Positions 1 to 7,835 of a DNA stretch of 7,835 nt are shown here, in pieces (within the stretch, counting starts at the first letter, position 1; the number at the start of each line of letters is the position of its first letter). The notes below the pieces were generated by a model. It saw nothing but the letters and a program-made list of their open reading frames with translations. It did no database searches and was not told where the DNA came from. The translations under genes were made by a program, and so were the position numbers. This stretch comes from a virus (lineage: Duplodnaviria > Heunggongvirae > Uroviricota > Caudoviricetes), in IMG/VR virus record IMGVR_UViG_2713896791_000024, positions 1-7,835 of that record; one strand, written 5' to 3'.

Positions 1-20
1 TTTCAAAATATTCCGCTATT

Positions 21-56
21 TGCTCCCAATGCAAAACATATATTGCATTGGGAGCA
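21..56 (+). terminator. Inverted repeat with T-rich tail; candidate intrinsic terminator for a plus-strand gene ending upstream of the window, or a protein-binding palindrome
   Basis: Seen in sequence: TGCTCCCAATGCA (21-33) and its exact reverse complement TGCATTGGGAGCA (44-56), separated by 10 nt (one extra A:T pair is possible) and followed by TATTCATATTTTTGTTATT. On the minus strand no T-run follows the stem, so it is unlikely to terminate the 184..489 ORF. Confidence 0.35.
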
Positions 57-183
57 TATTCATATTTTTGTTATTATTGTATGAAATCGTCTCATGTACA
101 CGGTCCTTTTTTCGCCGAAAACTGATATTACTTTAATCAAAAGTTGACGTGCCAGATTCGAAGTAAATTTATAAAATATCAAA

Positions 184-489
184 TCAATATACATTTTGCA
201 CCTTCGAGATAGTAATGACTGTTACTGTAACATGAGTTACAAACAGCTTCATACCCAGAGCTACTGATGTATCAACTCGATTCAACAATACCCGATATTT
301 ATTCCATGCCTCCAGCAACGATCTTTCTTCCTCCGTTGCGATTTCCAGATCTACAGCATCCTGCAGTGGCGCAATATACTCACTGAATTCCTGGATGTAG
401 AACTGTGTGGTGACGGTCTTCCAGCCATTCAGCTCCTGCTGTATCGAAGCATACCAGGCTATTTCAATATCGCTATGCTGCGGCAGCAT
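184..489 (-). CDS. Small ORF (101 aa) carrying a tail fibre assembly (Tfa) C-terminal motif; probable remnant or paralogue of a second tfa 3' end
   Basis: Residues ~38-76 ([40 protein letters not shown]) match the C-terminal region of the tfa product at 3002..3577 (36 of 40 residues by eye). At DNA level 265..386 aligns with 3038..3159 at about 105 of 122 positions (manual alignment), in direct orientation. ATG at 489 is immediately preceded by an in-frame stop; an AAGGGG Shine-Dalgarno-like motif lies only 3 nt upstream. The N-terminal 37 aa and C-terminal 25 aa do not resemble Tfa. Confidence 0.45.
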
Positions 490-545
490 TTAACCCCTTG
501 TAATTCATCGCCATAATTGATTTAATTCACAAATAAAACTATAAC

Positions 546-1214
546 ATGGTGAAATTAATGAAAAAAAACACAGATGATGGGGCTAAAATTTACACACCAC
601 TTACCCTAAAGCTTTATGACTGGTGGGTTTTGGGAGTATCAAATCGGCTTGCATGGGGATGTCCTACAAAGGAACACCTTCTTCCACACTTTCTGGAACA
701 TTTAGGTAACAACCATCTGGATATTGGTGTTGGAACTGGGTTTTACCTTACTCACGTACCTGAGAGTAGTCTGATATCTTTAATGGATTTGAACGAAGCT
801 AGCCTGAACGCGGCATCTACAAGGGCTGGGGAATCAAAAATTAAACATAAAATTAACCATGATGTTTTTGAACCTTATCCCGCGGCGTTACATGGTCAAT
901 TTGATTCCATTTCCATGTTTTACCTTCTTCACTGCCTGCCTGGAAATATATCTACAAAAAGCTGTGTAATACGCAATGCGGCGCAGGCCTTAACTGACGA
1001 TGGAACTCTATACGGAGCCACAATTCTTGGCGATGGAGTTGTGCACAATAGCTTCGGTCAAAAACTGATGCGCATTTACAATCAGAAAGGCATCTTTTCA
1101 AACACAAAAGATTCCGAAGAAGGCTTAACACATATACTCTCAGAGCATTTCGAGAATGTTAAAACCAAGGTTCAAGGTACTGTAGTAATGTTTTCCGCTT
1201 CAGGGAAAAAATAG
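546..1214 (+). CDS. Class I SAM-dependent methyltransferase, probably small-molecule type (UbiE/COQ5-like fold), substrate unknown
   Basis: 222-aa ORF with Rossmann-fold methyltransferase motifs read from the translation: motif I LDIGVGTG, acidic post-I LMDLN, motif II FDSISMFYLLHCL, motif III LTDDGTLYGATI. N-terminal YDWW...S...W pattern resembles the UbiE-family signature. No DPPY/NPPY motif, so probably not an N6-adenine DNA methyltransferase. Start is uncertain: ATG at 546 lacks an obvious Shine-Dalgarno, ATG at 558 has GGTGA 5 nt upstream. Visibly more AT-rich than the tail genes. Family assignment is from memory, not a search. Confidence 0.7.
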   Translation: MVKLMKKNTDDGAKIYTPLTLKLYDWWVLGVSNRLAWGCPTKEHLLPHFLEHLGNNHLDIGVGTGFYLTHVPESSLISLMDLNEASLNAASTRAGESKIKHKINHDVFEPYPAALHGQFDSISMFYLLHCLPGNISTKSCVIRNAAQALTDDGTLYGATILGDGVVHNSFGQKLMRIYNQKGIFSNTKDSEEGLTHILSEHFENVKTKVQGTVVMFSASGKK

Positions 1215-1220
1215 CATCCA

Positions 1221-1261
1221 ACCGCAGCACGTTCTTGCATAAGGCGTGTCTGCGGTTTTTC
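1221..1261 (+). terminator. Candidate Rho-independent terminator downstream of the methyltransferase gene
   Basis: ACCGCAGCACG (1221-1231) pairs with CGTGTCTGCGGT (1245-1256) with one bulged T, followed by TTTTT (1256-1260); begins 7 nt after the TAG stop at 1212-1214. Confidence 0.5.
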
Positions 1262-1579
1262 AACTATTCAGATACATCACTCCCATCACATTCATTCCTC
1301 CGCATCATAGGCATATAGGCTATATCACCTTGATATTTTTCTTCTTCAGATAAAAACTGTTATCTATGTATACTTTTAAACCCAATCCGTGTAGAGTCTC
1401 TGCATAAGATAGTTTGCAGTTGCCACTTCAGCTTGCGCCATAAACCGCCTGATTTTTGCCGCCACCTGTTAGCATTCCTGTATACCTGAAACGACAATGT
1501 TTATCTACGAACTTTAAGAACACCCAGGATAAAAATTGTCAACTATATCATATATAACACATTACTAATTCGAGGCTAT

Positions 1580-1693
1580 ATGAACAGCATACTGATAATC
1601 ACTTCGCTCCTTATCATATTCAGCATTTTTAGTCATGCTCTAATAAAATTAGGGATTGGCATATCCAATAACCCAGACAAAACCGATGTATAA
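1580..1693 (+). CDS. Candidate 37-codon small hydrophobic protein (single predicted transmembrane helix) in the leader upstream of the ydfK-like gene
   Basis: ATG 1580, TAA 1691-1693; translation [41 protein letters not shown] at 1572-1575 lies 4 nt upstream of the ATG. Below the size cutoff of the supplied ORF track. AT-rich DNA readily yields Ile/Leu/Phe-rich ORFs by chance, so this is tentative. Confidence 0.3.
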
Positions 1694-1761
1694 GTCAACA
1701 TATCCTGAATCAGACATACAATATCGCAATGAAAATCAATAATATTTTAAGGAATATCTTC

Positions 1762-1995
1762 ATGAAATCAAAAGACACCCTAAAGTGGTTCCCTGCGCAG
1801 CTTCCTGAAGTAAGAATTATCCTAGGGGATGCTGTAGTGGAAGTAGCAAAACAGGGAAGACCTATCAATACCAGAACATTGCTTGATTACATTGAAGGAA
1901 ACATAAAGAAAAAGTCATGGCTGGATAACAAAGAATTATTACAAACAGCGATATCAGTTCTTAAAGACAACAAAAATTTAAATGGTAAAATGTAA
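1762..1995 (+). CDS. ydfK: YnaE/YdfK-family small protein (the cold-shock-induced small proteins encoded beside pinR/pinQ in E. coli K-12 Rac and Qin prophages)
   Basis: 77-aa product MKSKDTLKWFPAQLPEVRIILGDAVVEVAKQGRPINTRTLLDYIEGNIKKKSWLDNKELLQTAISVLKDNKNLNGKM. I chose the ATG at 1762 (AAGGAA Shine-Dalgarno at 1749-1754) over the upstream in-frame ATG at 1729. Immediately upstream of, and co-oriented with, a pin gene, as in the K-12 ydfK-pinQ and pinR-ynaE neighbourhoods. Family and gene order are recalled from memory. Confidence 0.7.
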   Translation: MKSKDTLKWFPAQLPEVRIILGDAVVEVAKQGRPINTRTLLDYIEGNIKKKSWLDNKELLQTAISVLKDNKNLNGKM

Positions 1996-2224
1996 TATAA
2001 TAAACTTACTTTTTTATCATTTTTCCACTTTAACAACATTTTGCTCCACTTTTCCACGACCAAACAACTTGAAATCTGGTTAAAATAACACGCAACACTA
2101 TTCTTCTTCCTTGAGTCCGCCCGGAACTCGAAAAACAAACCGAGTTAAGGCCATTTTTCACAAAATCGATTTTGGGTCTCACCAAAATTACGGGGTTGCA
2201 TACGCATTCGTTTATTTTCGAACG

Positions 2225-2288
2225 TGTACATACAAATATGTACAAAAATAATCAAAATTATTTTCTGAGATGCATTATGATATGTACA
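2225..2288. promoter_or_regulatory. Cluster of TGTACA-containing palindromic sites upstream of pin; candidate operator or promoter-overlapping binding sites
   Basis: TGTACATA-caaa-TATGTACA at 2225-2244 is a perfect 8-4-8 inverted repeat; ATATGTACA recurs at 2280-2288, 44 bp after the copy at 2236-2244. All lie 25-90 bp upstream of the pin ATG at 2314. Function is inferred only. Confidence 0.3.
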
Positions 2289-2313
2289 CCAATTTCGTAT
2301 AGAAGATCTCACT

Positions 2314-2904
2314 ATGTCTCGAATTTATGCTTACTGTCGGGTATCAACTCTGGAACAGACAACCAAAAATCAACGTCGGGAAATCGAAAGTGCAGGTTTT
2401 AACATCAAATCTCAGCAAATAATTGAAGAACAAATTAGCGGCTCAGCAGCAACCAGTGAGCGTCCTGGTTTTAACCAGTTGCTTGATCGACTGAAAAGAG
2501 GTGATGCATTGATTGTCACAAAACTGGATCGCCTCGGTTGTAATCCAATGGATATCAGTAAAACGGTGGAACAACTGACCAAAGCAGGTATCAAAGTGCA
2601 TTGCTTAGCATTGGGGGGCGTTGACCTGACCAGTCCACCTGGAAAAATGATGATGCAAGTAATTTCAGCAGTCGCTGAATTTGAGCGAGACCTTTTACTT
2701 GAGCGTACTCATTCAGGGATATTAAGAGCACGGGGCGCAGGAAAGCGATTTGGTCGCCCACCTGTGTTAAATGATGAACAAATACAGAGGGTACTAGAGC
2801 AAATTAAGTCAGGTATAAATATAAGTGACATTGCCCAAGAATTCAAAACCTCGCGGCAAACCATTTTAAGAGCTAAAGCAAAAAATCAGACACCTGATAT
2901 ATAA
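2314..2904 (+). CDS. pin: Serine recombinase of the resolvase/invertase family (Pin-like DNA invertase), with Cys at the position of a conserved catalytic Arg
   Basis: 196-aa ORF. N-terminal catalytic domain with YCRVSTLEQ (Ser11 aligning to the Ser10 nucleophile of gamma-delta/Tn3 resolvase) and [10 protein letters not shown]; C-terminal helix-turn-helix region ([10 protein letters not shown]...[20 protein letters not shown]). The usual DRLGR motif reads DRLGCN (Cys76, TGT at 2539-2541). Convergent with tfa, as in K-12 pinQ-tfaQ. Confidence 0.9.
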
Positions 2905-2908
2905 AAAT

Positions 2909-2936
2909 AATCTCGGTGTGAGATTCCTTACGTTTT
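2909..2936 (+). terminator. Weak hairpin plus T-tract after pin; possible terminator
   Basis: AATCTC (2909-2914) pairs with GAGATT (2920-2925) around a 5-nt loop; a TTTT tract follows at 2933-2936, 7 nt after the stem. AT-rich short stem, so weak. Confidence 0.25.
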
Positions 2937-3001
2937 CCAAGCCCCCCTTCCTAGCCTTAAATGGAAAGATACTTCTAATTATAGAATTTATATATCTTAC
3001 C

Positions 3002-3577
3002 CTACGGTAGGGCTGGCCATTCAATATCCGGTGCAGTTGATGTATCAACACGGTTCAGCAACACCCGATACTTTTTCCAGGCTTCCAGCAACAAGGTTTC
3101 TTCCTCCGTTGCGATCTCCAGATCCACAGCATCCTGAAGCGGCGCAATATGCTCACTGGCTACCTGCATCAGGCTGTTTTTTGTTTCTTCCGCCTCCCGG
3201 ATCCGGAACAGTTTTTCTGCTTCCGTATCCTTCACCCAGGCTGTGCCGTTCCACTTCTGATATTCCCCTCCCGGCGATAACCAGGTAACATTTTCCGGTA
3301 ACGGACCGAGTTCAGAAATAAATAACGCGTCGCCGGAAGCCACGTCATAAACCGTTTTACCCCGATGATCTTCAACGAGATGCCACGATGCCTCATCACT
3401 GTTGAAAACAGCCACGAAGCCTGCCGGAATATCTGGCGGTGCAATATCGATACTGTTTGCTGGCAGACCTGTATGAGGCGGAATATATGCGTCACCTTCA
3501 CCAATAAATTCATTAGTTCCTGCCAGCAGATTATAAATTTTTATGGTCCGTGGTTGTTCACTCATTCTGAATGCCAT
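3002..3577 (-). CDS. tfa: Tail fibre assembly protein (lambda Tfa family)
   Basis: 191-aa product beginning [41 protein letters not shown], matching lambda Tfa as I recall it over nearly its whole length. ATG at 3575-3577 overlaps the stf stop codon (3577-3579) by one nucleotide (TAATG on the minus strand), implying translational coupling. Confidence 0.93.
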
Positions 3578-6492
3578 TATGCAAGCCTCACAATGTAGTT
3601 AAATGCGATGTTTTTGACAGTGTTTTCCGCGTTACCAGCAGCGTTAACGGTGATGGTGTGTCCATGTGAGCCAATCGCAACAGAGTGCGTATGAGCACCA
3701 ATACCGACAGTATGTGCGTGAGCACCTGCAGATGCAGCTGTGCCGCTGACACTATGAGTGTGCGCTCCTGCAGCACTTGTATTCACACTGGCCGCAGACA
3801 CTACCTTATGTACTGACCCATTTTGTGACCACTGGCTGACTGCTGATGCGCCTGTGACACTATGAGTATGGTTTCCGGCACTTGCGGCTGTACCGCTCAC
3901 ACTGTGCGTATGCGCCCCGGTGTTATTCGTGGATTTAGTGCCGTAATCAAACGACGATGTGGTTTTCGTCCCCAAATCCGTACTGGATGCACTGGCGCTG
4001 TGGGTGTGCGATTTAATGCCGTCCTGTTCCTGAGACAATACGGCCCGACCACTGGCAGGTTTGCCCTTAATCGTCCAGCCACGCATATCAGGGATCACGC
4101 CTGACGGATAAGCGGTTGCAAGTTTCGGGTAAGCGGATTTGTCAAAAGTCTGCCCCTGCATCAGGGCATAACCAGACGGAACGGTATCTGATGGCCACGG
4201 GATTGGTGCGCCAGGCGGATAAAACTGCTCTGATGGTGTATAGAGTGAATAAACTGTACCGTCCGTTAACCCTTCCGGCTTATTAGCAGAATATGCTGGT
4301 GACGTATGAATAGTCACGCTGGCATTACTGGTATAATCCCATTGAATATTTACACCAGTCGCATAATTTCCGATTGCAACGTAAATATCGTAAGTATCAC
4401 CAGATGTATTGACCCAGGCAAAATTTGTAAACCCTGTCGATGTGCGCTGCCATAAAGCACCAGTAATCCCCTTCGGATTACCATTACCTGCACGCAAAAC
4501 AAGTTCAGATATACCTGCCTGTTGAGGTGACCCCACGTTAAATCCCGCGCCACCAATCAACGTAATTGAAACAACAGAACTCGCCTGTGGCATGGTTACC
4601 GTTGCTAATTTGAACCAACCAGCACCACCGCTGAATGACATTGTTGTTGAGTTAAGCGTACCAATATCTTTCGGCGTCAGTGTTATATCCGCTGAAAGCG
4701 CCTTACCATTCACCTTACGGGCAGAAGGTACCCGACCATTCGCATTATCATTAGCTGCTTTCACTGCTTTCGGTGTCGCGGCAAGCGTTTCAGATGCGCT
4801 GTTGGTTGCACTACTGAGCTGGACAATTCCTTTTTGTGCTGTCGTAGCGTCCTGAGCAGTATATTTCCCGTTAGCAAGGTCATAGGCTGCCTTTACCGAC
4901 TTTGGCGTTGCCGCCAGCATTTCAGATGTGCTGTTGGTCGCGCTGCTGAGCTGAACTATCCCTTTCTGTGCTGTCGTTGCATCCTGTGCGGTGTATTTCC
5001 CGTTAGCCAGCTCATACGCGGCCTTAACGGCTTTTGGCGTTGCCGCCAGTGACTCGGAAGTGCTGTTAGTCGCACTGCTGAGCTGTACTATCCCCTTTTT
5101 CGTCGTGCTCGCATCCTCAAGCGCCACGGCGGATGCAATATCCTCTGCCCGTTTTGCCGCTGTCTCGGCGCGCGTTGCCGCGGATTCCGCCGTACTTTTG
5201 CTCTGAGCTGCCGCCGTCGCACTGCCAGCTGCCTCTGTCGCCTTCGTGGATGCCGTCGTGGCGCTGCCCTTTGCTGCTGACGCCTGTCTGGTCGCCTCAT
5301 CTTTTGAAGCAGACGCAGATGATGCCGATGACGCCGCCGAACTGGCGGACGATGCGGCAGCCGTTTTTGAGGATTCTGCGCTGGTTTCCGACGCTTTCGC
5401 GTTCGTCTCGGATGTCTTCGCTGCGGAAGCAGACCTCGCTGCTGCGCTGGCCTGTTCAGTGGCTTCGCCAGCCTTCGTTGTGGCTGTTGAAGCGGACGAT
5501 GCGGCGCTTTCTGCCGATTTTCCGGCAGCGGTGGCACTGGCTGAGGCCTGCCCGGCACTTGTTGACGCGGCACTGGCAGACGACGCAGCCGCTGTTTTTG
5601 AGCCTGCCGCAGCTGAGGCGCTCTGTCCCGCTGCCGTCTCAGAAGACCTGGCGTTCGTCTCGGACGTTTTTGCCGCCTTCGCGGAATTTGCTGCCGCCGT
5701 TGCCGAGGAAGCTGCGCTACTGGCGCTCGAGGATGCGTTCGTTTCTGATGATTTTGCCGCCTCTTTTGAAGCCGACGCATCCCGGGCTGAGGTGGCAGCT
5801 TCTGACGCTTTCGTGGTCGCGGTGGATGCAGAAGTGGCGGCTGATTGTTGTGACGCTGCAGCATTCGTTTCTGACGTTTTCGCGGCAGCGGCACTGGTAG
5901 CTGCCGCGCTTTTTGAGGACTCTGCAGCGGCAGCACTTTTTTCCGCTTCAGTGGCCTTTGTTGATGCCGTTCCTGCGCTGGAAGACGCTGACTGAGCCGA
6001 CGAAGCGGCCTGTCCGGCTGACGTGCTGGCTGCACGTGCTGAATCTGCAGCATCAGTCGCATGGGTTGCCGCCTCACGGGCAGATGTGCCGGCATCACTG
6101 GCTGACTTCTTCGCGGCTGCCGTGTTCTGTGCCACCACGGACGCGTTACGCGCCACCTCTTCCACCATCTGTTCAAAACGGCGCAGTGCCTCCGGACGGG
6201 CATCATCCTCCGTCATGGCACCGAGAAAATCATTCAGCGTACCGGGTTGAGAATCTTCATACACGGTGATGGTCCCGGCATGTGACGGCGGGAATCCTTC
6301 CACCAACAGAATAACGCTGTACTGCCCGTACTCAACGTCCATGCTGTAACGCCCGGCTTCATCCGGATTTTCTGAGGCCAGCGTGTTCACCACCACCGTG
6401 GTGCTGTTACGTTTTGCTTTCAGCTGGATTGTGCAGTTCTGTACCGGTTTTCCTGTGCCGTCTTTCAGTACACCTGAAATCTTTACTGCCAT
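3577..6492 (-). CDS. stf: Side tail fibre protein (lambda Stf family), 971 aa
   Basis: Starts [26 protein letters not shown], matching the lambda Stf N-terminus as I recall it. Contains a long Ala/Ser/Thr-rich fibrous region, three tandem 44-aa repeats ([27 protein letters not shown]...), and a C-terminal tip with repeated His-x-His motifs. Start is placed at the ATG at 6490-6492 (GGGGTGA Shine-Dalgarno-like motif just upstream); the ORF-track extension to 6612 reads through the N-gap and the lom terminator and is an artefact. An identical start context is duplicated after the gap at 6567-6569. Confidence 0.9.
4750..5097 (-). repeat. Three tandem copies (two full, one partial) of a 132-bp unit inside stf encoding a 44-aa phage tail fibre repeat
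   Basis: The string CTGAGCTG recurs at 4814, 4946 and 5078 on the plus strand (period 132 bp). Protein repeats [44 protein letters not shown] occur three times, the last diverging after KAVKAA. Confidence 0.8.
5100..6000 (-). repeat. Low-complexity Ala/Ser/Thr-rich region of stf with degenerate internal repeats (AAKTSETNA-type)
   Basis: The translation contains several [18 protein letters not shown]-like units within a roughly 300-aa Ala/Ser/Thr-rich stretch. GCN-rich codons generate long artefactual ORFs in other frames on both strands. Confidence 0.75.
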
Positions 6493-6503
6493 ATTCACCC
6501 CAC

Positions 6504-6553
6504 NNNNNNNNNNNNNNNNNNNNNNNNNNNNNNNNNNNNNNNNNNNNNNNNNN
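6504..6553. other. Scaffold gap (50 N) flanked by a 27-bp exact duplication; probable unresolved contig overlap rather than missing sequence
   Basis: AAATCTTTACTGCCATATTCACCCCAC occurs at 6477-6503 immediately before the N-run and again at 6554-6580 immediately after. Collapsing the duplication leaves about 64 bp between the lom stop and the stf start, close to the lambda lom-stf spacing as I recall it. Confidence 0.8.
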
Positions 6554-6579
6554 AAATCTTTACTGCCATATTCACCCCA

Positions 6580-6607
6580 CAAAAAAGCCCGCCTGAACCG
6601 GCGGGCT
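6580..6607 (-). terminator. Rho-independent terminator downstream of lom, immediately upstream of the stf ribosome-binding site
   Basis: Minus strand reads AGCCCGCC-GGTTCA-GGCGGGCT (8-bp GC-rich stem, 6-nt loop) followed by TTTTTTG; plus-strand stem arms at 6586-6593 and 6600-6607, A-run at 6581-6586. Confidence 0.75.
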
Positions 6608-6633
6608 GTCATAACTCTGTGTTACCTGGCTAA

Positions 6634-7257
6634 TCAGAATTTATAACCGACCCCCACAATGAAACCGTCAGTGCGCCAGTCGCCACTGCCGGAGCCTTCA
6701 TAAGCAAGGTCAATAACCACCGTCTCTACGGGACTGAACTGAATCCCGGCATTCCAGGCCGGCGACAGATGACGCGCAGTATGACCATCACTGGCGGTGG
6801 TGGTCTCCTTCACATACCCCGGTTTCACTTCATCACGCCGGTAATCCTGAACACTGTCAGACCAGCGGGTGTACGCCATCCCGGCCATGCCATAGAGACT
6901 GACCCGCTCACTGAGCTGCCAGACAGGGCCGGCCATCAGACTGACATAACGACCGCGCAGGCTTTCATAATGGAAGGTATTTTCACCCGTCTTCATCGTG
7001 TCACTTTTCTTCACCGATGCATAACTCAGCGCGACAATGCCGCCCAGGTGATCCGTGAACTCATAACGGTATTTCACGTTAATCCCTTTTAAATCACCTG
7101 CACGCGCACCGGTACCGGACAATGCCGGTACGCCGCCCGGGTGAACCTGAGCATATCCCACGGAAAATGCACCGTGTCCGCTTTCAGCCTGTGCAGGAAA
7201 GGCAATTCCTGCCAGCAGGGTAGTAAACAATAATATCGTTGCGTATAAATGCCGCAT
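6634..7257 (-). CDS. lom: Lom-like outer-membrane protein (Ail/Lom/PagC family 8-strand beta-barrel)
   Basis: 207-aa product MRHLYATILLFTTLLAGIAFPAQA|ESGHGAFSVGYAQ... ending ...DWRTDGFIVGVGYKF, with signal peptide and C-terminal aromatic residue; closely resembles lambda Lom as I recall it. Start chosen at ATG 7255-7257 with AAGAGG Shine-Dalgarno 5 nt upstream; the ORF-track extension to 7293 runs into the upstream terminator. Confidence 0.9.
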   Translation of the reverse strand: MRHLYATILLFTTLLAGIAFPAQAESGHGAFSVGYAQVHPGGVPALSGTGARAGDLKGINVKYRYEFTDHLGGIVALSYASVKKSDTMKTGENTFHYESLRGRYVSLMAGPVWQLSERVSLYGMAGMAYTRWSDSVQDYRRDEVKPGYVKETTTASDGHTARHLSPAWNAGIQFSPVETVVIDLAYEGSGSGDWRTDGFIVGVGYKF

Positions 7258-7281
7258 GATTACCTCTTTGTTTTCAGTCAA

Positions 7282-7306
7282 TAAAAAAGGCACCTCCTGA
7301 GGTGCC
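7282..7306 (-). terminator. Rho-independent terminator between the J-like gene and lom
   Basis: Minus strand reads GGCACCT-CAGG-AGGTGCC followed by TTTTTTATT; plus-strand coordinates 7289-7306 for the palindrome and 7283-7288 for the A-run. Confidence 0.65.
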
Positions 7307-7325
7307 CGTCCGGGTTAATAAACCG

Positions 7326-7835
7326 TCAGCTGATACTGATCCCTGCTGTGGATTTTTTCATGACCACAACCAGTAAATCACTGATGTACGTTGTCGGCGT
7401 CCAGTTGTTCGCACCGGCCGACGACACATTAAACGTCAGGGTGACATGACCCCGCCCTGCCGGCATATCTATCACCGATGAGAACACCCGGCTGACATCC
7501 GTTGCCGGTTCATGGAAAATCTCAACCCCGTTCTTCAGCACCTGCAGCTTACAGGTGGAATACCAGTACGACTGCTGATTCGGGCTGTTGAAATTCTGGT
7601 GTTTCGTCCCGCGAAACAGCACCGGGGGAATGATGATCTGCCGGTCGAAGCCCTGGTCATCGTAAACTGTGACGGTTACCGTCCCGCTGGCATAACTGTT
7701 ATTCCGGGGAAAGGCTTTCCCCACCGTCTTCACCAGGTCGCCTTCAATCTGGTTTGCAGACAGTTTCCCTCTGATGACACAGTTCTCGTTAATGGTGACA
7801 TTATTGAGCGTGCCGGTATTCGCGGTAATTGCTCC
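7326..7835 (-). CDS. J: Host specificity / tail tip protein J, C-terminal receptor-binding region (5' end outside window)
   Basis: Reading frame is open from the window edge at 7835 to the TGA at 7326-7328. The translation ([19 protein letters not shown]...[12 protein letters not shown]...) resembles the lambda J C-terminus as I recall it. The ORF-track start at 7733 is an internal GTG, not the true start. Followed by lom, as in lambda. Confidence 0.85.

Follow-up and report, generated by a model that had tools for sequence, protein, structure and literature searches.

The pin gene in a 7,835-nt stretch of Caudoviricetes DNA (IMG/VR virus record IMGVR_UViG_2713896791_000024, positions 1 to 7,835; hereafter, the window) encodes a small serine recombinase of the clade that includes K-12 PinQ and PinR, and the active-site Arg of its DRLGR motif is replaced by Cys. 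Comparison with its relatives indicates that pin is the stranded tnpR of a decayed Tn3-family transposon, and the name Pin is historical. Overall, we consider it probable that the product is a catalytically crippled resolvase that has been kept as a DNA-binding protein.

The pin product has the domain order of a small serine recombinase, with an N-terminal Resolvase domain (PF00239; E = 1e-37; residues 4-144) followed by a C-terminal helix-turn-helix (HTH) domain (HTH_7, PF02796; E = 1.8e-11; residues 147-190), and it matches Gin and gamma-delta resolvase in the PDB. The motif in question reads L-D-R-L-G-C-N. In phmmer alignments to these solved structures, "kldrlgCn" of the pin product stands opposite "kldrlgRs" of Gin and "kldrlgRd" of gamma-delta resolvase without a gap, and counting along the alignment places Cys76 at gamma-delta R71. 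Likewise, the Arg of DRLGR in K-12 PinE faces Cys76 in a BLASTP alignment. An earlier note on this DNA, made from the sequence alone, had claimed that a Cys occupies the position of this catalytic Arg, and these alignments bear it out. The single CGT-to-TGT transition that it proposed is also upheld, as the transposon-borne orthologue described below carries CGT at codon 76; Cys76 therefore arose by one C-to-T transition.

The remainder of the active site is largely intact. Tyr7, Arg9, Ser11, Glu39, Arg50, Asp72 and Arg73 of the pin product correspond to gamma-delta Y6, R8, S10, D36, R45, D67 and R68, respectively. The catalytic constellation Y6/R8/S10/D36/R68/R71 is nevertheless incomplete, with Y7, R9, S11, E39 and R73 kept and Cys76 at the R71 position. 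Among 14 catalytic-domain residues tested in Tn3 resolvase, 13 are kept in pin, R71 being the exception. The Glu at the D36 position is shared by the whole subfamily and is a natural variant that was already known (PMC2794168).

No clade-specific substitution supplies an obvious basic residue to stand in for the missing Arg. The equivalent residue in Sin is presumably R69, a correspondence based on counting along the DRLGR motif of Sin. Arg69 of Sin has been described as the "likely general acid" for cleavage (PMC6007550; see also PMC4499144). In Tn3 resolvase, the R71A and R71K changes reduced in vivo resolution to nil and slowed strand cleavage ~1,000-fold, while binding to site I was kept (PMC2794168). 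This mutagenesis suggests that the pin product is impaired; by analogy, a Cys76 protein would be expected to fold, dimerize and bind DNA but to cleave very poorly.

Cys76 is fixed among the genomes surveyed. In a census of 5,426 complete E. coli genomes, based on exact matches to the 57-nt context centred on codon 76, the window-allele context with TGT was found in 135 records and the pinQ/pinR-allele context with TGT in 2,557 (~2,690 TGT records for both alleles combined), while the CGT version of either context gave no exact match. Codon 76 is likewise TGT in E. ruysiae, at further E. coli loci and in three isolated lambdoid phages (Tritos, 2H10 and PhiR34_1), and K-12 PinQ, translated from a Keio-strain genome, reads DRLGCN. 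Cys76 is thus neither a read error nor a polymorphism. The earlier note had suggested looking for a C/T polymorphism at position 2539, and the census of complete genomes returned TGT only. The window does derive from a draft scaffold with a 50-N join elsewhere, which could be taken to favour a sequencing or assembly error or a mutation private to one strain; the census, together with the K-12, E. ruysiae and phage copies, refutes this explanation and leaves it with next to no probability. As the earlier note had allowed, Cys76 characterizes this Pin subgroup: K-12 PinQ (Qin prophage) has it too, and PinR (Rac prophage) is reported to be 99% identical to PinQ (PMC12529663).

An E. coli-type pinQ with TGT at codon 76 was also encountered on contigs of 2.3, 2.5 and 31 kb (L025, L028 and L029) from metagenome-assembled genomes labelled Alistipes, Draconibacterium and Caldithrix. 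These are most likely E. coli DNA contaminating the bins. A wider locus search of genome contigs returned near PinQ/R-type loci and one distant match only, as its peptide patterns were too specific to sample Arg-type relatives.

The Cys is not family-wide. The homologue set consisted of the 120 best matches in a collection of 5.8 billion proteins, all at least 72% identical to the query. DRLGR followed by N or D was present in 113 of these, and two of the three remaining motif variants still carry the Arg. DRLGC was confined to four clusters, namely P0001 (window type), P0002 and P0003 (PinQ/R type) and P0056, a truncated 181-aa cluster of PinQ/R type. The alignment check proposed in the earlier note therefore places the Cys in one narrow clade, of which it is a derived state. 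Measured against the Arg-type consensus, the window allele and PinQ have 11 derived residues in common, which supports a single origin of Cys76.

Comparison with K-12 Qin (L002) revealed a mosaic block at about 2250-3150 of the window, in which pin, the inverted-repeat relic and the 3' end of tfa are ~90-92% identical to Qin; the flanking regions, 1350-2249 and 3150-3549, are 97-100% identical. On this basis, the window pin allele came by recombination from a more distant lambdoid lineage. The 110 bp 5' of pin are 96% identical to the pinQ region, compared with 90% for the gene, which had suggested selection on an operator. This was rejected, as a sliding comparison shows the mosaic block instead.

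The gene descends from a transposon. Among Arg-type proteins, P0013 comes nearest, with 80% identity to the window protein and 83% to PinQ. On E. coli plasmids, its gene is divergent from that of a 994-aa transposase (DUF4158 and DDE_Tnp_Tn3) across a 160-bp intergenic region, and the plasmid records label this neighbour "Tn3 family transposase." The transposon is ~3.8 kb long, has the order tnpA-res-tnpR and is bounded by perfect ~40-bp terminal inverted repeats (GGGGTCCGCTTGGAAAACGGAAAATATCCCACGCTAAGAC, with a GGGGTC... tip). P0013 and three other Arg-type clusters (P0071, P0111 and P0068) all adjoin genes with PF01526 (DDE_Tnp_Tn3). Among the more distant Arg-type relatives, those of Shewanella baltica (three copies in one genome), Vibrio anguillarum and Providencia lie beside Tn3-family transposase genes in the same arrangement.

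In blastn comparisons, DNA homology between the transposon and the window covers positions 2232-2942 at 82% identity. It extends from ~82 bp 5' of the ATG to ~38 bp 3' of the stop codon and includes the terminal inverted repeat; the left end of the transposon matches window positions 2942-2903 in inverted orientation, and the right end is colinear with the window. A tblastn search with the transposase detected no trace of tnpA in the window. When three transposon variants were aligned with the window, pinQ and phage 2H10 (alignment A1), putative counterparts of the three res subsites emerged upstream of pin; the decayed repeat lies downstream of it (Table 1). The subsite names follow the Tn3 analogy, and the site I consensus was unmatched in the window at up to 3 mismatches. 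We also considered that the transposon homology ends exactly at the site I crossover, as at a resolvase-mediated junction, but alignment A1 better fits a gradual degeneration of site I. A promoter and terminator scan of positions 1990-3010 gave matches no more numerous than those in shuffled sequences.

As would be expected of a tnpR gene, the nearest relatives of pin lie beside a Tn3-family transposase; tnpA, the pair of terminal repeats and an intact res are missing from the locus. PinQ and the phage copies have junctions with the transposon relic identical to those of the window, so one ancient insertion followed by decay explains all of them. These comparisons point to pin as the stranded tnpR of that element.

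Alleles in which the two types of gene are combined provide further support for this ancestry. Clusters P0004 to P0008 are chimeras of the prophage and transposon types. In a ynaE-pin-tfa prophage context on an E. coli chromosome (GCA_910593615.1; L033:5940-6560), the informative sites from nt -61 to +559 are all of the transposon type and the flanks are of the prophage type, and at a second locus (L034:31-295) the converted tract runs from -7 to +257. Both gene-conversion alleles regain Arg76, R35 and E61. They confirm the homology of relic and transposon, and they indicate that homologous recombination between the transposon tnpR and the prophage gene still takes place.

Residues of the regulatory inter-dimer contact have been lost together with the Arg. 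The R-interface (2-3' interface) involves R2, R32, K54 and E56 in gamma-delta numbering, and its mutation blocks recombination on full res (PMC9943657); E56K is among the changes that disable the interface in the engineered "NM" Tn3 resolvase (PMC2794168). All four residues are present in the Arg-type relatives. The changes R35Q and E61K, at the R32 and E56 positions, are common to the whole Cys clade and map to its shared stem. R3 (R2 position) and R59 (K54 position) are kept in pin, leaving the set incomplete, and K-12 PinQ additionally carries R3Q at the R2 position.

The rate of protein evolution has also shifted in the Cys lineage. The window protein departs from columns conserved at 95% or more in 16 positions and PinQ in 14, compared with a median of 1 and a maximum of 7 among the Arg-type homologues (n = 111). 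Tajima relative-rate tests against the E. coli transposon copy used the tnpR of Shewanella as outgroup; unique amino-acid changes numbered 27 in the window lineage versus 5 in the transposon copy (p = 1e-4) and 23 versus 6 for PinQ (p = 0.0016). Four-fold degenerate sites were symmetric (11 versus 7 for the window and 13 versus 11 for PinQ). The protein of the Cys lineage has therefore evolved 4-5 times faster, with no speed-up at silent sites. Five positions changed independently in both Cys lineages, where ~1.2 were expected (p = 0.003).

Despite this acceleration, pin appears to be under weakened but real purifying selection. When pinQ is compared with the window allele, the ratio of nonsynonymous to synonymous substitution rates (dN/dS) is 0.38 (25 synonymous and 34 nonsynonymous differences; dS = 0.21), which is below 1 (p = 0.0009) and about twice the values of 0.15-0.19 on the paths to the transposon gene. 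All translated Cys-clade copies, including those of isolated phages, are intact open reading frames (ORFs). This bears on the possibility that pin is a functionless pseudogene in slow neutral decay, hitchhiking in a nonessential arm of lambdoid prophages, with a frame still open through shared ancestry. The loss of the catalytic Arg, two interface residues, tnpA and site I, the faster protein and its many departures from conserved columns would all be compatible with such decay, as would the vertical inheritance of most copies in Qin or Rac prophages. We nevertheless find it distinctly unlikely, given that dN/dS is significantly below 1 between two deep Cys lineages and that neither frameshift nor stop codon has appeared in the translated cryptic-prophage and isolated-phage copies after ~10% nucleotide divergence. 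Moreover, deletion and overexpression phenotypes have been reported (PMC12529663; bioRxiv 10.1101/2022.03.29.486199).

The history that best accommodates these observations would begin with the insertion of a minimal Tn3-family transposon just downstream of a lambdoid phage tail-fibre assembly gene. The element would then have lost tnpA, while res site I degenerated and the terminal inverted repeat eroded. The ancestor shared by PinQ and the window allele would have exchanged the active-site Arg for Cys through a CGT-to-TGT change and lost the two R-interface residues. Efficient canonical resolution would then be gone and no substrate would remain in cis. Since the protein keeps its Ser nucleophile and remaining catalytic residues as well as its fold and HTH domain, and is under purifying selection, it is most likely still made and still binds DNA. 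It would probably target the residual res II/III in the pin promoter and perhaps also related res sites at other places, and its role could be that of a regulator or dominant-negative binder rather than an invertase. Of the options left by the earlier note, the data agree best with a recombinase that is catalytically impaired, domesticated or regulatory, considering the lost site I, tnpA and interface residues and the faster protein. The Cys, its fixation, the transposon ancestry and the shift in rate are shown by the comparisons; the loss of catalysis and the DNA-binding role are what we infer from them.

Several points weigh against this reading. The R71 mutants of Tn3 resolvase were described as "not inert" (PMC2794168), and residual activity at high expression is possible. 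The res subsites were assigned by analogy with Tn3, and the DNA-binding or regulatory role of the pin product is a prediction. In the catalytic domain, dN/dS is 0.35 and not above that of the HTH domain (0.47), and an enzyme selected for catalysis would show the same residue retention and dN/dS pattern. Overproduction of PinQ was reported to raise inversion of the e14 P segment from ~30% to 88%, with both inverted repeats needed, and it was concluded that "PinQ is active" (PMC12529663).

In that study, PinQ was presented as the first recombinase-activated phage-defence system, in which PinQ-driven inversion of the P segment blocks phage T2 (Kirigo et al., NAR 2025, PMC12529663). PinQ was treated there as an ordinary Pin-like invertase, 38% identical to PinE, and the missing Arg was not mentioned (zero matches for "arginine" and "cysteine" in PMC12529663). 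PinQ was overproduced in pinE+ cells only. In the ΔpinE strain, the segment was ~98% noninverted despite intact pinQ and pinR, while 22% inversion was observed in the ΔpinQ strain compared with 30% in the wild type (supplementary Table S4 of PMC12529663). Overproduction of PinE gave 49% inversion (PMC12529663). The value of 88% exceeds the ~50:50 equilibrium of a simple invertase, which hints at bias, selection or an indirect effect. Given the ΔpinE and ΔpinQ data and the use of pinE+ cells, catalysis may lie with PinE, the part of PinQ being that of a modulator only. This casts doubt on the claim that PinQ itself inverts DNA, as the published data do not separate PinQ from PinE. Full activity of a recombinase with Cys at this position, which would speak against the impairment raised in the earlier note, has been claimed in print, yet the published data do not establish it.

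A working recombinase, in which Cys76 is tolerated or acts as a proton donor and which acts in trans, for instance by inverting the e14 P segment, has a real but minor chance of being correct. It would account for the 88% inversion and its dependence on e14 and both inverted repeats, for the slightly lower inversion in the ΔpinQ strain and for the induction of pinQ/pinR transcripts by T2 (PMC12529663), as well as for the retained Ser nucleophile, the other catalytic residues and the dN/dS of 0.38. It fits less well with the PinQ overproduction in pinE+ cells only, with the locking of the segment by ΔpinE alone and with the bias above equilibrium. Furthermore, the protein is a Tn3-type derivative with 37% identity to PinE, and its ancestral half-sites, of the TGTCCGAAA type, are unlike the P crossover site TTGGTTTGGGAGAAGG quoted in PMC12529663. 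The abolition of Tn3 resolvase recombination by R71A and R71K, with no obvious compensating basic residue in the active site on the stem of the Cys clade, also argues against it.

If the pin product is instead a crippled resolvase kept for DNA binding, it could have been exapted as a catalytically dead "pseudo-resolvase" subunit, kept by lambdoid phages to interfere with other serine-recombinase systems. We offer this as a tentative and rather doubtful extension. Such a subunit might repress or poison incoming Tn3-family transposons through occupancy of their res sites. It might instead bias the direction in which PinE inverts the e14 P segment; the published anti-T2 phenotype would then be explained without catalysis by PinQ. 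A still more radical alternative is that Cys76 serves as general acid in place of the Arg, in which case the pin product would be the first natural serine recombinase with a thiol in that role.

These considerations have implications beyond the window, as about half of all complete E. coli genomes, and also the K-12 laboratory strains, carry PinQ/PinR. The picture of PinQ changes to that of a protein of transposon-resolvase descent, in which the Arg thought to protonate the leaving group is absent and two R-interface residues are lost. PinQ may act indirectly, by way of PinE or of DNA binding; if not, a serine recombinase can work without that Arg, and both outcomes matter to the recombinase field. 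In addition, pin neatly illustrates how an enzyme gene of one mobile element can become stranded in another and be kept there under altered selection.

The features of the pin locus are listed in Table 1. K-12 Qin and isolated phages have the same ydfK-pin-tfa order. At 184-489 (-), the 3' end of a tail-fibre assembly gene occurs as a second, truncated copy, oriented as the intact tfa and annotated as an incomplete pseudogene in a near-identical record. A direct repeat (251-396 and 3024-3169; 82%) places tfa copies on both sides of a methyltransferase-ynfT-ydfK-pin cargo block. The methyltransferase gene (546-1214, +) encodes a class I S-adenosylmethionine-dependent enzyme and lies at the prophage end; K-12 e14 carries near its own end ymfD, which has the same product name. 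At the left edge of the window, positions 18-59 contain a 17-nt inverted repeat, 94% complementary with an 8-nt loop (ATTTGCTCCCAATGCAA / TTGCATTGGGAGCATAT).

Table 1. Features of the pin locus and its surroundings in the window
Feature	Position	Strand	Basis and remarks
pin gene	2314..2904	+	196-aa small serine recombinase; tnpR-derived orphan of the PinQ/PinR clade
Codon 11, Ser	2344..2346	+	Nucleophile retained in YCRVS motif; alignment to gamma-delta S10
Codon 35, Gln	2416..2418	+	Gamma-delta R32 position, R-interface (2-3' interface); Arg in 100% of 111 Arg-type homologues
Codon 61, Lys	2494..2496	+	Gamma-delta E56 position, R-interface; Glu in 100% of 111 Arg-type homologues
Codon 76, TGT (Cys)	2539..2541	+	Gamma-delta/Tn3 resolvase R71 position; context cgcctcggt TGT aatcca
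Putative counterpart of res site I (crossover), degenerate	2197..2224	+	Alignment A1; right half TTTTCGAAC recognizable, left half and centre lost; by analogy
Putative res subsite II remnant	2239..2270	+	Alignment A1; dyad partly decayed; overlaps presumed tnpR/pin promoter region; by analogy
Putative res subsite III remnant	2283..2301	+	Alignment A1; TGTACACCAATTTCGTATA versus TGTACACCCATTTCGTACA in the transposon; well conserved; by analogy
Decayed right terminal inverted repeat	2910..2947	+	blastn and sequence comparison; inner block CGTTTTCCAAGC intact; GGGGTC tip changed to GGGGGG
tfa (tail-fibre assembly), convergent with pin	3002..3577	-	Pfam Caudo_TAP, E = 1e-43; annotation of a near-identical record; single copy, one orientation
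ydfK/ynaE-type small gene upstream of pin	1729..1995	+	Annotations

In the right part of the window, a run of 50 N (6504-6553) lies between identical 27-nt copies (6477-6503 and 6554-6580) and represents a scaffold join of overlapping contig ends. The "1011-aa" tail-fibre ORF (3577-6612, -) is therefore artefactual at its N-terminus. On the left side of the gap, identity of the window to E. coli 2011C-4251 is 99.985%; on the right side, it falls to 96% (lom) before disappearing in the J gene. The stf gene contains three tandem 132-nt repeats (4736-5131), the second and third with 77% and 62% identity to the first. These and many shorter dispersed repeats (about 5290-5990) encode an Ala/Ser/Thr-rich region and yield long spurious ORFs on the opposite strand.

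Among known systems, the Din invertases (Hin, Gin, Cin and PinE) resemble pin in being small serine recombinases with a C-terminal GRPP motif, encoded beside phage tail-fibre genes, and Gin is the best PDB sequence match of the pin product (99.5 bits). Members of the Din family share ~60-70% mutual identity, and their enzymes are interchangeable. The window protein falls well short of this, with 37% identity to PinE as opposed to 80% to the transposon TnpR. At a genuine Pin locus, that of K-12 e14, stfP-tfaP is opposed to tfaE-stfE next to pinE. The window has no such arrangement: stf and tfa are single and co-oriented, with no opposed tail-fibre cassette and no invertible segment beside pin, no inverted repeats flanking the tail-fibre genes were found in the window, and the e14 P crossover site had no match there at up to 3 mismatches. 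The framing of the gene in the earlier note as a Pin recombinase of the Hin/Gin/Pin invertase type is thus not supported, and the comparisons favour a tnpR with remnants of res and a terminal repeat.

Gamma-delta and Tn3 resolvases share with pin the fold and the catalytic constellation of Y6, R8, S10, D36 (Glu in pin, as throughout its subfamily), R45, D67 and R68. They differ from it at R71, R32 and E56, which are changed in pin, and overall identity is low (phmmer E of ~6e-23). A much closer counterpart is the TnpR of the E. coli transposon, which agrees with the window copy in its length of 196 aa, its domain order, the res II/III region on its 5' side and the terminal repeat on its 3' side. 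The window copy differs in having no tnpA, a degenerate site I and an eroded repeat, and in carrying Cys76 for Arg, Gln35 for Arg and Lys61 for Glu. Closest of all is K-12 PinQ, with 85% amino-acid identity to the window protein; the two also agree in the DRLGCN motif, in the ydfK-pin-tfa context and in their junctions with the transposon relic. Relative to pinQ, the window carries a second, deeper allele, with a nucleotide difference of ~10% inside the mosaic block (~2250-3150) and flanks that are 97-100% identical.

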